Shown here one piece after another: positions 13,112 through 22,440 of a stretch of 64,000 nucleotides of DNA. Both the position numbers and the translations under genes were made by a program. The stretch is from positions 32,001 to 96,000 of IMG/VR virus record IMGVR_UViG_3300032285_001268, one strand, 5' to 3'. This DNA is from a virus. Positions within the stretch are counted from its first letter, which is position 1. Each line of letters starts with the position of its first letter. The notes beneath the pieces are model-generated. The model was not told the origin of the DNA. It did no database searches and saw only the letters and a program-made list of their open reading frames with translations.

Positions 13112-14068
13112 TTAGATATTGATTTCAAGATGTTTGACAGGATCCCAGTGCCAGTTCCACTCGCGCTGTTTAGTATGATACAGCACCGATCCAATTGCTG
13201 AACTAGGATCTCCTGGATTAGGCAAACTCCAACGATATTTGAACATAGGTTCAACATATTTCTTATTAGCACGACTGTTCATAGCACAACCGCCCATGTA
13301 GACCAAACAGTCGGCATTGGTATATAACTTGGCAGTGGTCATTACTAGTTCCACTTGTTCTTCAAATACCTGTTGTACAGCCGCGGCTAGATCGCATTGT
13401 TCTTGTAGTGTAGTTAGTTCACCGTGATCCCAATTCAATACACCACGATGAAAATTGGTGTTTAATTCTAGTACTGTACCTGGATTAAAATAACTTCTGA
13501 CATAGTGTAAGAATCTGTTCGGATCACCTTGTTCGGCCATTTGCTGTAGCAAGAATTCGTCTCGGATAGGAGTTAATCCAACAAACTGAGTAAACGCTGA
13601 ATAGAACAAGCCCAAACTATGTGGATAACTACGACTCCACACTTTGGTCATTTCGCCGTGGACGCAGTTCCAAATTGTGGCACATTCAAACTCTCCGATA
13701 GCATCTAACACTACCACTGCCGCATGATTAAATGGACTAGTATAGTAACCTGCTGCCGCATGGCTACCATGGTGAGGTGTGTATCTGACTTTTGCATATT
13801 TTAATGCATTCCTCTTGATCCATTTGCTGGGCAATACGTCCAAGTTGGCCGCAGTATGGTATTGGCCAGCATAGACTTGGCGAGCTTTTTTAACCCACGG
13901 ACGTTCGTACCAAAATATACTACTAGGTCCGCCTGCACGATCTAATGCGTTAGTGATTAGACGTCGATCCATCCGGTCATTACTACTGGTTTCAAAACTG
14001 ACTAATCTATCAGTAAACACAGCAATACTACTGCCGTGATTGAGTGCGTTTATGCCCCAGTAAGTCAT
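13112..14068 (-). CDS. Carbamoyltransferase, N-terminal (Kae1-like) domain only
   Basis: HHGSHAAAGYYTSPF, VLDAIGE, GGCAMNSRAN, PGDPSSAIG; no C-terminal YrdC-like domain. Confidence 0.85.
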   Translation of the reverse strand: MTYWGINALNHGSSIAVFTDRLVSFETSSNDRMDRRLITNALDRAGGPSSIFWYERPWVKKARQVYAGQYHTAANLDVLPSKWIKRNALKYAKVRYTPHHGSHAAAGYYTSPFNHAAVVVLDAIGEFECATIWNCVHGEMTKVWSRSYPHSLGLFYSAFTQFVGLTPIRDEFLLQQMAEQGDPNRFLHYVRSYFNPGTVLELNTNFHRGVLNWDHGELTTLQEQCDLAAAVQQVFEEQVELVMTTAKLYTNADCLVYMGGCAMNSRANKKYVEPMFKYRWSLPNPGDPSSAIGSVLYHTKQREWNWHWDPVKHLEINI

Positions 14069-16070: not shown

Positions 16071-16445
16071 ATGGCAAAATTACGAGACACTGTAGAACAA
16101 AACTTACCTTATATTAGCGTTATTAACTACGGCGAAGAAGAGTATATCGGGATTATAATTAATCAAGATCAATACGTTCTTAGCTTTTACGACCTAAATG
16201 CTATCCGCACCCCTGAAGAAAAATCTGTATTTTTACAGATAGGCGAAACTTGGTGGTGGGAATCAAATCGCCAGTTTCCTATCAACATATTCTGTAGGGA
16301 TCAAATACAGCCCTTTGGATATGCTATTAAAACATTCAACAGCAAAGATACTCGAATAATACTAGGGCCAGTTGTAAATTTAATGAATCTTACAATCAAG
16401 CGAGTTAAACGCAAGAGTGTAAAACTAGTCCGCAGAGTTAGATAA
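16071..16445 (+). CDS. Conserved hypothetical protein (124 aa)
   Basis: Likely start MAKLRD at 16071, divergent from the previous gene. Confidence 0.65.
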   Translation: MAKLRDTVEQNLPYISVINYGEEEYIGIIINQDQYVLSFYDLNAIRTPEEKSVFLQIGETWWWESNRQFPINIFCRDQIQPFGYAIKTFNSKDTRIILGPVVNLMNLTIKRVKRKSVKLVRRVR

Positions 16446-17003
16446 CTGTTCACAAATTAAGTTCATTTGTACAACAATTACGTGGGCATAGGCAATAGCG
16501 TGGGCCTTCTTAAAGTAGTACTCATCGTTCTCCGGCTTCGTCCAAATCTCCGTCATAATCGTAGTCCAATCTTTCCCAATCAGATAACGTTTGGCCGGGC
16601 GTATCATCGCTAGTACTGCGGCCAACTGCTCGATAGACTCTGGTTTTGCTTGTCTCAGAATAGACCCATGCCCATTCACATGAAACAGGTTCTGGGTAAA
16701 CTCGTCTTCCTGTAGTAGGTCCCATAGTGGCTCAGTCTCCATTAGTTTTTTTAGGTGATCACGATCTCGTACACCATCATATACACTAACATTCAAAAAA
16801 TCTATTTTGAAATAACCTCTATCTTCTGCTTCTTTGTAGTCTATTGTACTTATTCCTGTGAATGGATTATGCGGTATTGAAGTACAATATACACCAGTGT
16901 TGTGCTTTTTAAAAGTGCCATTTTCACTAATTGCAGCCGCAATAGGTTTAAACACCTCAAGTGCTCTAGTTCTATCTGCAAAGTCTATATCAATATCTGG
17001 CAT
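16425..17003 (-). CDS. Miniature DnaE-like (family C polymerase) catalytic core
   Basis: PDIDIDF, HNTGVY, KIDFLNV, AMIRPA and YYFKKAHAIAY occur in DnaE order within only 192 aa. Confidence 0.85.
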   Translation of the reverse strand: MPDIDIDFADRTRALEVFKPIAAAISENGTFKKHNTGVYCTSIPHNPFTGISTIDYKEAEDRGYFKIDFLNVSVYDGVRDRDHLKKLMETEPLWDLLQEDEFTQNLFHVNGHGSILRQAKPESIEQLAAVLAMIRPAKRYLIGKDWTTIMTEIWTKPENDEYYFKKAHAIAYAHVIVVQMNLICEQLSNSAD

Positions 17004-17168
17004 TTAATAATCCGTATGTATCCACTCTTTAGGTTCGTCTTTGTTTGGATCATAAGGTTCCTTGGTAATAGGATTAACCAATCTCCAAATATCTGCACAG
17101 CGATTTTGTTCAGGTATTTCTTCTACAATAGTTCCGTCTTGTAGCAACCACGTGATAGGATTGTTCAT
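17004..17168 (-). CDS. Hypothetical protein (54 aa)
   Basis: Manual translation MNNPITWLLQDGTIVEEIP...; fills the gap exactly. Confidence 0.55.
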   Translation of the reverse strand: MNNPITWLLQDGTIVEEIPEQNRCADIWRLVNPITKEPYDPNKDEPKEWIHTDY

Positions 17169-17857
17169 AGATTCGACTCCTTGACCACTTGCTTGACTAG
17201 ATCAACATCTGCAGGAAGTTTTTTAAATTTATGTACCCAAAACTGTGGATCAATAATATTTCCAATTGCCGCAAGTTGCTCATCATTAAATTTCTGTAGC
17301 ATAGCTTTTCCTGACGGACAATTCAATATCACCCAAGGACTAACTTTTCCATCTTTGATATCGTAACTGGCCCTTGATAGACTAACATAGAGAAAATAAT
17401 GGTTCCATACGCTATTATTAGCCTCAGCCCACGACATCATATGTGAGATAGATCGTTGTAGTGCTGTTTCAACTGTTTCAGTTCTAATCAAATGTTGCAC
17501 ATACTGTTCGTAAAGTTCATCTCGGCACCAGTGGTCTAATTTAACTCCGCTGGTTACTACATAATCAATGAACGCATCAGGATATAAAGGGTTGACGTTA
17601 GAGACAAAAGAACCAAACTTAACAAAAGCATTATAATAAGGACTACGGGCAAAGTCTTCATAAGTTTTGTCACCTTTAGAATTTTGTGAAATTTTATAAA
17701 ATCTATTGTAAGTGTCGTAGCCTAATACAACATGTTTTTCAGTACGTGCTAGAGCTCTACGCTTTTGTTCGCATACGTGAACTGCCAATGTTTTTTCTTT
17801 GGAAAATTTATTTCCGCAATATTGACATGTATATGAACTTGGTGTTAGCGTCATCAT
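17165..17857 (-). CDS. Protein with N-terminal C2H2/C2HC zinc-finger-like motif
   Basis: YTCQYCGNKFSKEKTLAVHVC. Confidence 0.65.
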   Translation of the reverse strand: MMTLTPSSYTCQYCGNKFSKEKTLAVHVCEQKRRALARTEKHVVLGYDTYNRFYKISQNSKGDKTYEDFARSPYYNAFVKFGSFVSNVNPLYPDAFIDYVVTSGVKLDHWCRDELYEQYVQHLIRTETVETALQRSISHMMSWAEANNSVWNHYFLYVSLSRASYDIKDGKVSPWVILNCPSGKAMLQKFNDEQLAAIGNIIDPQFWVHKFKKLPADVDLVKQVVKESNL

Positions 17858-18330: not shown

Positions 18331-18605
18331 TGATCATCCTTAACCATACGATATATTATTATAACATTATCTATGGCTTTTTGCAAGGCCGGATTCTTCT
18401 TTCCGGCTAACCTAATTTTGATCCATTCGTTATGCGCTTCCAATTCTTTATTACCTGTAGTCCGTGGATCATAGGTCGGATCATTTTTATTGTAATCCCA
18501 ACCGACTACTTGCCTGGTACTAGGATTGGCACCGAATTCACGAGCATAAACTACGTTGTCTACACGCTCGTGTATGTAAGTGGCGCCGGGTTTAAGCGAT
18601 CCCAT
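18327..18605 (-). CDS. Hypothetical protein
   Basis: Likely start MGSLKPG at 18605. Confidence 0.6.
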   Translation of the reverse strand: MGSLKPGATYIHERVDNVVYAREFGANPSTRQVVGWDYNKNDPTYDPRTTGNKELEAHNEWIKIRLAGKKNPALQKAIDNVIIIYRMVKDDQ

Positions 18606-19257
18606 TTTGCACTGCCAATTGTTGGATTGTTTCTTCTTTGGGAACCAATCGAGCATCAAAGGCTAAACTAGTCCTAAAACCAGTACCTTTCCACGGATAA
18701 ACTGTATGTGGCAAATAACTTGGAAAAATAATAATAGAGCCTGCGGCCGGAGAATATTTCCAAGTATCTTGCATGATAAATTTGCCAACATCTCTAGTCT
18801 GTGGCAGTCTGAATAAAATTTGACTGTCGCTGGGTTGGCTCTCAATATCAAGTTCCGGAGCACTAATATAGATGTTCCCGCTGATGTTTCCAGCAGGGTG
18901 ACTGTGCATTTCTTGATAGTCTCCAGGACCTTGTCTTATGGTCCAAATACTAGTTACGACTGGGTCGCATAAGGTAAGATCCTCTGCACCGCTTTGTTTA
19001 GTCACTAACTCCATATAGCCACGACACATGTTTTCTAACCATTTAACTAGCCATTCAACATTAAGGTCGATCTTATTAGGATAAACTTGTATCTGTTGGC
19101 CACCTCGGGCAGATATAAACGGATTGTCACTGTCGTCTTGATCAGTGTGATTATCGTGCAGATCTTGAACCATAGTATACATCTTACTAAATTCTACTGG
19201 CGGTATTTGATCTATTGCAACAATGATAGGGCAAAAATAAGCAACTTTTAATTCCAT
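18592..19257 (-). CDS. 2OG-Fe(II) oxygenase (TIGR02466-like)
   Basis: HSH...ISGNIYI, FPSYLPHTV and RTSLAF motifs. Confidence 0.8.
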   Translation of the reverse strand: MELKVAYFCPIIVAIDQIPPVEFSKMYTMVQDLHDNHTDQDDSDNPFISARGGQQIQVYPNKIDLNVEWLVKWLENMCRGYMELVTKQSGAEDLTLCDPVVTSIWTIRQGPGDYQEMHSHPAGNISGNIYISAPELDIESQPSDSQILFRLPQTRDVGKFIMQDTWKYSPAAGSIIIFPSYLPHTVYPWKGTGFRTSLAFDARLVPKEETIQQLAVQNGIA

Positions 19258-19777: not shown

Positions 19778-21244
19778 TTATTTAGACCAGTCTACTTTTT
19801 CTAATGTAAACGGGTACTTGGCTTCCTTGTAAAATTTCTTTCTCTCGGTAAGATGCCGCTTGGCATACTTACATGTGGACGTAAGGTCCCAGATTTGAAC
19901 GAAGTCTTTATCTTCTGCTTTTCTAATGCCTCGCCCAATACTCTGTATAACTCTGACAAAGCTCTTTCCGGGCTCCAAAAGAACCAGATTAAAAATCCTA
20001 GGGATATTAATACCAACAGCGGCCACACCGTAAGTCGCCACAATAATCTTGTTGTCACTAGTCTTAACTTCGTCATATTCTTCTTTCCTGTCTTTCGTTT
20101 TAACTTCGCCTGATATAAACACCGAGCCTTCTAATTCATTTACTAAAAATTTGCCTGAATCAATCCTATTAACTAGGACTAGTGTATTGCCTGTGTCTGA
20201 TATTTTTTTAATTAATTTTGAAATGTATAACATCCTGTCATCGTCAGTGACTAAGTATTTTAATTCATCGCTGTATGCCTTAAACTCTGGCAAGTCTATC
20301 ATCTGTACTACATTCACGTGACAATTTGATAGTACTCCCATTTGCTGTAATTCGTGAGCCTTAATGCCGCCAATCACTGGTCCAAGACTAATAAAAATCT
20401 GTTCAGATTCATATTTTTCCTTGGGAATTGTTCCAGTCAATCCCCAACGAATTGGCGCATTACATAAATTTTGAGTTAATAGATTCTTTAGTACATCTGC
20501 CTTGGCCATGTGTACTTCGTCAACAATTATAGTCTTAACTCCGTCTAAAAATTCAGCTAGTGTTACTATATCGTGTTCACTATTTTTTGATTTTTTGTCT
20601 AAAATATTAAGACTTTGCCACGTGCAGATTGTATGTGTTTTATTAAGATCTTTTCTATCACCGTAGTAAACACCAACATCTAAACCAACTGTGATAAAAT
20701 CTTCTTCTGTTTGTTCTACAAGGCTCTTATTGGGAACAATGGTAATAGTCCTGCCGTATTTTTCTGCCAACTGACTCAATGTAGCTGTTGTAATAGTTTT
20801 GCCAGCACCTGTTGCAATTTCTTGTAGACTTTGTGAATTATCGAGAAATCTATTAATAGCTTCTACTTGATAATCACGTAGCATGATAGGTTTGCCTTCA
20901 TCGACGTGTCCTTTTGGCCATACTTTACCTTGGTCGGCCCAGTAGGTTTCAGTTACAGGCTCGAACGAAATTTTTGGAGTATCTCGTTGATCATCAACTT
21001 CCTCAACTCCGATTCCCATACCAGCTAATACATTTAAAATAGTTTCTAATTGATAGAGATAGCCGTTACCACCTAGGCCAAATAAACTGACCATTCCGTC
21101 CCAACGTCCTAGTTTATATGCCGGTTGATATCTTGCGTATGGAATTTCATACTTAAATGTTGACACTAATTTCTTACGAGCATCTAATGGCAGATTCTCT
21201 AATTTAATGTTAACTTCGTCTCGGATCACTAATCTTACGGTCAT
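19778..21244 (-). CDS. uvsW: SF2 DNA helicase (UvsW-like)
   Basis: ATGAGKT, DEVH, GLTGT, QSIGRGIR. Confidence 0.9.
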   Translation of the reverse strand: MTVRLVIRDEVNIKLENLPLDARKKLVSTFKYEIPYARYQPAYKLGRWDGMVSLFGLGGNGYLYQLETILNVLAGMGIGVEEVDDQRDTPKISFEPVTETYWADQGKVWPKGHVDEGKPIMLRDYQVEAINRFLDNSQSLQEIATGAGKTITTATLSQLAEKYGRTITIVPNKSLVEQTEEDFITVGLDVGVYYGDRKDLNKTHTICTWQSLNILDKKSKNSEHDIVTLAEFLDGVKTIIVDEVHMAKADVLKNLLTQNLCNAPIRWGLTGTIPKEKYESEQIFISLGPVIGGIKAHELQQMGVLSNCHVNVVQMIDLPEFKAYSDELKYLVTDDDRMLYISKLIKKISDTGNTLVLVNRIDSGKFLVNELEGSVFISGEVKTKDRKEEYDEVKTSDNKIIVATYGVAAVGINIPRIFNLVLLEPGKSFVRVIQSIGRGIRKAEDKDFVQIWDLTSTCKYAKRHLTERKKFYKEAKYPFTLEKVDWSK

Positions 21245-22440
21245 AATGTCTTGTACTCAATTAGCGTAGGTTTTTCTGAATATGTAATTACTAAATCGCA
21301 ACACTTGGAATATACTGCTGTTTTGTTGTGTCTTAGGTAACCATCAAAAAATATAACACTCATAGGTTTCCATGGATTTTTTAGGAAAAATTTCGGTAAT
21401 TTTCCACCTAAAATACAGGCTACTTTTAAGTGCTCATCTAAGGGTTTATTGTAATTTTCGTCTGCAATAGTGCTGTTAAAAATTTTGCCTTTTTCATTAT
21501 TAGGTAATCTAAAATAAACACCAACTGAATCGTCTACTGAATTTTCCTTCAAAGATTTTGACAAAATTTCCAGATTTTTTAAGGTTTTTTCTTCGTCCCA
21601 AACATCAAATACAAACAGTACCGGTAGTCTTTTTAGTTGTACAAGACTGTTTACAATTTCCGAAAGACCATGCTGAGTGTTATCGACCCAAATCCTAGGA
21701 GATCCTCGATTTGCCAGGTATTCAACTAGCGTCTCACCTGGATTTTTTGGAGTTTTTGTAAAATACTGATATCGTATACTTCTGTCAGATATGATATTTT
21801 GATCAATATGTGTTTCAATGCCAAGGTCAGCAGTAATACTTTTTTGAAAGTTTTGATGCTCAATGTTGGTCAGTAAAAATTGGTCAAAAAATTCGTCTTG
21901 AGACCAAGATTTTATGGTAGTGTAATAATCTTGTATTTCGTCTTCAATGACAAAATTAAAATTTTTCAAACTATCAATGATCGTGACAATATTTTTTTCG
22001 GTCAGGCTAGCACGGTATGTTTTGCCATTTGCAGTCTGGGTCAAATTTTCGATATTTTTGCTGATATCGGTTAAAATTTTCCTAATTTGACCATTATGTG
22101 TAAAATTGACCTCAATGCCCGGTTCATCGGTATTTTTATCAACTGTATAAATTTTTCTTATCTGCTCAATTTGCTTAAAATTCTTAGTCCAGCTGGGTAG
22201 TGATAAAATTTCTTCAATTTCATCAGAAAATATTTTCAGTTTTTTTTGATTTTCTCGTAAAATCTTGGTTACTAGTCGACTTTGATTTTCAGTTATAAAT
22301 GTAGGGCCAAGAATATACTTTACCATACTAGTGCAGGTTTCAAAATCCTTCTTTGAAAGATTTTTTTCAGCATAGCTATCTGGATAATTTACAATTTTTA
22401 CTATTAGTTCATCAACTGTTATCATATTACTAGTGTACAC
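21241..22440 (-). CDS. Hypothetical protein (399 aa)
   Basis: Long ORF coupled to uvsW; no motif recognised. Confidence 0.7.
   Translation of the reverse strand: MYTSNMITVDELIVKIVNYPDSYAEKNLSKKDFETCTSMVKYILGPTFITENQSRLVTKILRENQKKLKIFSDEIEEILSLPSWTKNFKQIEQIRKIYTVDKNTDEPGIEVNFTHNGQIRKILTDISKNIENLTQTANGKTYRASLTEKNIVTIIDSLKNFNFVIEDEIQDYYTTIKSWSQDEFFDQFLLTNIEHQNFQKSITADLGIETHIDQNIISDRSIRYQYFTKTPKNPGETLVEYLANRGSPRIWVDNTQHGLSEIVNSLVQLKRLPVLFVFDVWDEEKTLKNLEILSKSLKENSVDDSVGVYFRLPNNEKGKIFNSTIADENYNKPLDEHLKVACILGGKLPKFFLKNPWKPMSVIFFDGYLRHNKTAVYSKCCDLVITYSEKPTLIEYKTL

Follow-up and report, generated by a model that had tools for sequence, protein, structure and literature searches.

The closest described system is the split minimal DNA polymerase III alpha that accompanies a family B DNA polymerase (PolB) in jumbo phages of 'group 2.2'. 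This enzyme was described computationally by Iyer, Anantharaman, Krishnan, Burroughs and Aravind, who name Atu_ph07 as a member of the group and, in the part of the article concerned with this enzyme, propose that it synthesizes one strand or acts in repair (Iyer et al. 2021, Viruses, PMC7824862). A literature search for later papers on the split minimal Pol III alpha found none, and the omics paper on PA5oct says nothing about the gene. The arrangement itself is already known, from the 2021 prediction and from annotations in PHROGs and several GenBank records. New in the present work are the exact split point, the conservation of individual residues, an estimate of selection, confident structural models, and the natural fused forms of the enzyme.

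To our knowledge, all enzymes in which the bacterial replicase fold has been seen at work have ~900-1400 aa. In cyanobacteria, the halves of DnaE encoded by dnaE-n and dnaE-c carry intein halves, and trans-splicing joins them within the fingers to give a normal DnaE of full length. The DnaE protein of Bacillus subtilis is of full length and binds the clamp; Sanders and colleagues reportedly described it in 2010 as the primer-extending partner of PolC.

The window analyzed here is a stretch of 64,000 nucleotides, bases 32001-96000 of a 185-kb viral contig from IMG/VR with an estimated completeness of ~50%. It encodes a protein that belongs to the split minimal Pol III alpha family, in which it is the C-terminal unit (hereafter the C-unit, its N-terminal counterpart being the N-unit). 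With the described enzymes this protein shares the match to the full-length profile, the ~190-aa stand-alone form starting at the DxD strand, and a setting in what is probably the replication module of a T4-core jumbo phage. In contrast to the described phages, the lineage of the window is uncultured, and the recovered contig contains neither the partner gene nor PolB. The protein is very probably the C-terminal piece of a two-piece minimal C-family (Pol III alpha/DnaE-like) nucleotidyltransferase typical of the T4-core 'group 2.2' jumbo phages, a reading that is directly supported by homology, conservation of residues, the fold, the position of the split, the co-occurrence of the two units, and natural fusions. 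The features of the locus are collected in Table 1.

Table 1. Features of the C-unit gene, its neighborhood and the natural fusions. Positions refer to the window unless another locus is named.
Feature	Position	Strand	Remarks
C-unit CDS	16425-17003	-	192 aa, ATG start; predicted Mg2+-/template-binding unit of the split minimal Pol III alpha
PDIDID, aa 2-7 (PDIDIDF, aa 2-8)	16983..17000	-	placed by E. coli numbering and conservation
D3 codon	16995-16997	-	E. coli D401
D5 codon	16989-16991	-	E. coli D403
HNTGVY, aa 34-39	16887..16904	-	E. coli H511-AGGVV; directly after the expected thumb position (E. coli ~433-510)
KIDFL, aa 66-70	16794..16808	-	K66 is E. coli K553; D68 is D555, the third catalytic aspartate
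IRPA, aa 134-137	16593..16604	-	E. coli fingers motif FRPG, 638-641
FKKAHAIAY, aa 164-172	16488..16514	-	E. coli FNKSHSAAY, 756-764
Small gene, phrog_11637	16071..16445	+	function not assigned; convergent, 21-nt overlap with the C-unit 3' end
54-aa ORF	17004-17168	-	in the C-unit frame; stop codon directly before the C-unit start codon (TAAATG)
Zn-finger protein, phrog_11058	17165..17857	-	230 aa; N-terminal C2H2-like CxxC...HxxC
2OG-Fe(II) oxygenase (PF13759)	18592-19257	-	in the replication block
399-aa ORF	21241-22440	-	between UvsW and UvsY; no Pfam or PHROG match
Carbamoyltransferase N-terminal domain-only protein (PF02543)	13112-14068	-	between primase and DnaB
P0103 fusion	L184:1066-2193		natural N+C fusion
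P0274 fusion	L200:519-1649		natural N+C fusion

The translated reading frame starts with MPDIDIDF and contains, in DnaE order, all five motifs listed in a preliminary description of this DNA. The E. coli motif positions and the catalytic residues D401, D403 and D555 quoted there agree with the MG1655 dnaE gene, fetched for numbering, in which PDFDVDF occupies residues 400-406, KFDFLG 553-558, and FNKSH 756-760. An assignment of the catalytic D401 and D403 to D5 and D7 of the phage protein was rejected on the MG1655 numbering, which leads to D3 and D5; D7 corresponds to E. coli D405. The internal, motif-preserving deletions proposed in the same description were confirmed by comparison with E. 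coli: (i) 26 residues lie between the DxD and H motifs, as compared to ~105 in E. coli, where this gap holds the thumb (P2 to H34 in the C-unit against 111 aa from P400 to H511), and (ii) 28 aa lead from R135/P136 to F164, as compared to ~116 aa from R639/P640 to F756. The chain terminates ~20 residues past the FKKAH motif, at approximately residue 770-785 of E. coli DnaE. The profile alignment covers residues 538-641 and 740-769 of the E. coli protein, and the DxD strand was matched to 400-406 by motif.

The thumb, PHP, OB and clamp-binding parts had been said to be absent, and this holds: no PHP, beta-binding or OB part is found within the 192 residues, nor is the thumb; PHP (PF02811) has no match on the contig or in the genomes of five relatives, and the beta-binding HhH domain (PF14579) has none in the five relatives. 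The NTP-binding GRGS half of the palm is also absent from this chain, whose start is the DxD strand. In the Pfam search, the C-unit scored 9.8 bits with PF07733 (DNA_pol3_alpha), missing the gathering cut-off of 23.9, and gave a weak, sub-threshold match to the finger domain PF17657 at aa 110-137. Lacking PHP, thumb and beta-binding/OB parts and scoring below the Pfam threshold, the C-unit is not DnaE proper. As compared with the bacterial enzymes (E. coli, 1160 aa, 2HNH; Taq, 2HPI/3E0D; Mtb, 5LEW), the C-unit retains the equivalents of D401/D403/D555 and K553, and the phage units share with them the HxGG strand, the RPG and FxKSHxxAY fingers motifs, and the fold of palm and fingers. The phage core differs in lacking PHP, the thumb (E. 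coli ~433-510), ~90 aa of the fingers between RPG and FNKSH, the beta-binding HhH and OB domains, and the tau-binding tail; moreover, its palm is divided over two polypeptides, and the whole core comprises ~360 aa instead of 1160.

The C-unit matches the family phrog_11778, annotated as 'DNA polymerase', with E 1.5e-69 (aa 3-186 against positions 8-194 of the 197-position profile), and colinearly matches positions 578-678 of phrog_405, the family of full-length phage DnaE. When 1.84 billion representatives were searched exhaustively without a profile, at a threshold of E <= 0.001, 427 C-unit clusters at 50% identity were obtained, nearly all of them 185-215 aa long, and relatives are present at no fewer than 560 loci (at least) in IMG/VR. 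Among cultured phages, 96 records have tblastn matches to the C-unit; among the matches listed, the genomes are 280-490 kb, with one of 94 kb. The cultured orthologues are from Atu_ph07 (53% identity), Phosso (50%), the PA5oct group (47%), and 121Q/RaK2/PBECO4-like phages (43%), identity to any cultured phage being <= 53%.

The M-PDIDIDF start is kept in 80 of 80 sequences (that of the window and 79 close relatives), despite variable upstream sequence. In a set of 87 diverse homologues with 30-57% identity to the window protein, residues D3, D5, K66, D68 and P136 are invariant, including all three catalytic aspartates that the preliminary description had regarded as kept, and D7, H34, G37, I134, R135, K165, H168 and A173 show conservation of >= 90%. 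The ratio dN/dS, proposed as a check in that description together with a structural overlay, has a median pairwise value of 0.13 in 446 pairs. The reading frame is confirmed to be a genuine gene under strong purifying selection and not a chance ORF.

The AlphaFold2 model of the C-unit (pLDDT 96.8, pTM 0.89), built on the alignment of these homologues, was compared by Foldseek with the PDB, and C-family enzymes (Pol III alpha, DnaE1 or PolC) occupy the first 17 places, 14 with a probability of 0.8-1.0. They include Taq Pol III alpha (4IQJ/2HPI/3E0D), Mtb DnaE1 (7PU7/5LEW) and the E. coli enzyme (2HNH), with a probability of 1.0 for 4IQJ, 2HPI, 7PU7 and 5LEW; large gaps in the alignments fall at the extra domains of the bacterial enzymes. 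The model matches only C-family polymerases. The data support the view of the C-unit as a DnaE-derived remnant of palm and fingers that keeps the three catalytic aspartates, as well as the internal nature of its deletions, which remove the thumb and, between the RP and FxKxH motifs, most of the fingers.

In relatives, the GRGS half of the palm is encoded by a separate gene. An N-unit gene that passes the PF07733 cut-off is present in three of three cultured relatives (Phosso, 121Q and Paride), and the N-unit was found in the three most complete of five uncultured relatives, G001 (83% complete), G002 (71%) and G003 (60%). Only the N-units pass this cut-off in the relatives, scoring 35-49 bits, and they are encoded 31-185 kb away from the C-unit. 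Counts of cultured phages with the C-unit and the N-unit are 34/34 in Escherichia, 11/11 in Pseudomonas, 11/10 in Klebsiella, 8/8 in Salmonella, and 8/8 in Erwinia. The N-units (phrog_11127) are 165-180 aa long, have an invariant W-G-x-G-R-G-S-S-V-x-S-Y block, and in 98 of 110 cases have EFLK or EFLR as their last residues. Besides the C-unit, five relatives yielded no other piece of the fingers, and PolB is present in the relatives W01-W03, G002 and G003. Of the interpretations offered in the preliminary description, 'one subunit of a split polymerase' has stood, whereas the stand-alone 'minimal DnaE' has not, the GRGS palm half being a separate gene of ~170 aa in relatives. The same description expected to be refuted if the missing domains lay in separate genes and together formed an ordinary split DnaE; this applies to one piece, the N-unit, and even with it restored the enzyme would still differ greatly from an ordinary DnaE.

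The profile alignment of the N-unit spans residues 323-392 of E. coli DnaE, up to ...ERFL (ERFLN being 389-393). Since the N-unit profile stops at residue 392 and the C-unit begins at P400, alignment places the split point in the short PERVS loop of the palm, between its NTP-binding half and the metal-binding strand. No intein halves were found at this junction: the N-units end in EFL[KR] and the C-units start with M-PD.D.D, with no extra sequence. The cyanobacterial split DnaE is likewise a C-family polymerase made from two distant genes, but the phage split is inside the palm and offers no room for intein segments. As judged from the sequences, assembly of the N-unit and C-unit would have to be non-covalent, because the junction ends leave no room for an intein.

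Both units also occur as a single chain. Three such fusions, P0103 (375 aa), P0273 and P0274 (both 376 aa), share 78-81% mutual identity. In the P0103-type fusion, the N-unit, a linker of ~8 residues (EFIK-DNKEGIYNIA-DFDID) and the C-unit follow each other in one reading frame. Two of the three, P0103 and P0274, come from two separate samples and lie among the same genes, with a convergent small gene downstream. The stand-alone N-units nearest to the N-half of P0103 are 66% identical to it and are unlinked to any C-unit. P0103 matches phrog_11127 and phrog_11778 colinearly, and its match to the full-length DnaE family crosses the junction. In the sections of Iyer et al. 2021 (PMC7824862) that deal with it, the enzyme is described as split, and the natural fusions P0103, P0273 and P0274 are not mentioned. 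Two other proteins, P0151 (350 aa) and P0152 (550 aa), carry C-unit tails on unrelated N-termini and were judged to be most likely assembly chimeras; one of these N-termini is helicase/nuclease-like, and the other consists of a bacterial exonuclease and the PHP start of DnaE/PolC.

The structure of P0103 was modeled from a mixed alignment with N-units on the N-half and C-units on the C-half, in which the first ~10 residues of the C-unit were aligned poorly. The model has a pLDDT of 94.0 and a pTM of 0.90, and its uncertainty is confined to the linker. It matches Mtb DnaE1 (5LEW) with Z 21.9 over 329 residues at 4.0 A, the Taq ternary complex (3E0D) with Z 20.4, and PolC (3F2C) with Z 17.7; over the C-family polymerases, fingers included, the Z scores are 14-22, high values that in part reflect likeness to solved DnaE structures. 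The next fold class, which comprises the CCA-adding enzyme, Cid1 and Pol X, reaches Z 3.7 or less. In this model, the N-unit and C-unit show themselves to be complementary parts of one palm, a result that bears on the fused chain and not on binding between separate chains.

Neither the N-unit nor PolB was found on the 185-kb contig. The search for the N-unit covered a motif regular expression, tblastn with three N-units and their neighbors, PF07733 and phrog_11127. A search for PolB and PHP genes had been proposed in the preliminary description; it was negative for both on this contig, and among the relatives it returned the PolB genes listed above and no PHP. By ORF-by-ORF tblastn, the contig is colinear with G002 from 43.7 to 185.2 kb (1.8-154.5 kb in G002), and G002 carries PolB at ~165 kb and the N-unit at 191.4 kb. 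The two genes are probably missing here because the contig ends before the equivalent positions; by synteny, the N-unit and PolB would be expected ~37 and ~10 kb past its right end, respectively. The other end of the contig (G000:C1:1-43000, overlapping the start of the window) is not colinear with G002, and these first ~43 kb have only scattered small-protein matches to 155-240 kb of G002.

The C-unit gene is located in the window within a replication and recombination block of T4 type that includes DnaB, primase, UvsW, UvsY and a RecA/UvsX-like protein. The local order of UvsW ... C-unit, convergent small gene, structural protein, primase and DnaB is common to 121Q, Paride and Phosso. The small gene, whose ATG start was inferred from the G002 homologue, keeps its convergent arrangement in 121Q, Paride, Phosso and G002 and behind the fused genes, and is a candidate functional associate of the C-unit. 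Immediately upstream, the 54-aa ORF has no family match and no counterpart in G002; it is probably a small gene particular to this lineage and translationally coupled. Read-through of its TAA codon, which would join it to the C-unit, was rejected given the absence of this ORF in G002 and the conserved Met start. Elsewhere in the block, the 399-aa ORF has 21% identity to its positional counterpart in G002, and the 121Q gene at this place is annotated as 'DNA polymerase exonuclease subunit'. The PF02543 protein and the PF13759 oxygenase may be DNA-modification enzymes.

Three other explanations of the C-unit were weighed against this evidence. It could be a self-sufficient stripped Pol-beta-like nucleotidyltransferase, for example a terminal transferase, a primer maker or a synthase of signaling nucleotides. 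Such an enzyme would accord with the invariance of the metal-binding aspartates and K66, with the model in which the 192-aa chain appears to fold confidently by itself, and with the absence of the partner gene from the contig, but this absence is probably explained by the early contig end. Pol-beta-fold active sites are defined by the hG[GS] triphosphate-binding loop, and it is the N-unit that has this loop and not the C-unit. The co-occurrence of the two units across genera, their fusion in three natural proteins, and a fold matching the C-family at Z 14-22 against < 4 for CCA-adding enzymes, Cid1 and Pol X also speak against independent action, which we consider very unlikely. Somewhat harder still to believe is that what is left of a degraded DnaE gene persists as a catalytically dead protein with a structural or regulatory role: the massive losses as compared with DnaE would fit this, but the catalytic residues are invariant over the 87 diverse homologues, purifying selection is strong, the 427 clusters are of uniform length, and both units conserve their start and stop positions.

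The adjacent Zn-finger protein had been named in the preliminary description as a possible partner, and it might take the place of the N-unit or, as a DNA-binding accessory, that of the thumb and HhH domain. It starts with a C2H2-like segment and is encoded on the same strand just upstream of the C-unit, with only the 54-aa ORF between them; in G002 its homologue abuts the C-unit gene, and 121Q, Paride and Phosso have in or near this position genes that are alike by matching size only. Nothing beyond this synteny ties it to the active site. No fusion with the C-unit was found, phrog_11058 has no family annotation, the Atlas clusters that contain the protein are all viral and hypothetical and provide no functional lead, and other small genes precede the fused N+C genes in L184 and L200. 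A functional partnership with the Zn-finger protein is unlikely, and the split C-family enzyme composed of the N-unit and C-unit remains the preferred reading.

From the features of this split enzyme, we infer how the pair may assemble physically, as well as its catalytic activity, substrate and biological role. The C-unit would supply the beta-strands with the metal-binding D3, D5 and D68 and with K66, forming a two-metal site, together with the HxxG strand and the shortened fingers, whose IRPxK and FKKxH motifs in DnaE line the template/dNTP pocket. The N-unit would bring the GRGS triphosphate-binding loop and the helices of the first half of the palm. Most likely, the two units assemble non-covalently and without an intein into one Pol-beta-fold active site. 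The pair may be a small, non-processive, proofreading-free DNA polymerase that acts beside the family B replicase of the phage. With thumb, HhH domain, clamp-binding motif and exonuclease all missing, the pair is expected to synthesize distributively and with frequent errors, unless phage accessory proteins assist it. The conserved place of the C-unit gene near those for primase and the DnaB helicase suggests a role in extending primers or filling gaps at the fork, or in repair. DnaE of B. subtilis may be a functional analog, as judged by synteny, in that it is a second C-family polymerase beside the main replicase and the phage gene is close to those for primase and helicase. Templated synthesis on duplex DNA is not assured, because ~90 residues of the fingers, the whole thumb and the HhH domain are missing. 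We tentatively consider a further possibility, which is rather doubtful, that the ~360-aa pair is an active polymerase, smaller than any other known C-family enzyme, that elongates the products of primase or closes gaps at the phage fork before the family B replicase takes over, with phage-specific accessory proteins in place of the thumb and clamp-binding parts; candidates for these accessories are the Zn-finger protein and the phrog_11637 protein.

A widespread phage family keeps ~360 aa of the replicase fold, in two genes, beside a complete family B replicase. If active, the pair would define the minimal catalytic core of the C-family polymerases and would add a second polymerase to T4-type replisomes. 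In that case, the rare natural fusions would also offer a view of the modular assembly of the Pol III palm.
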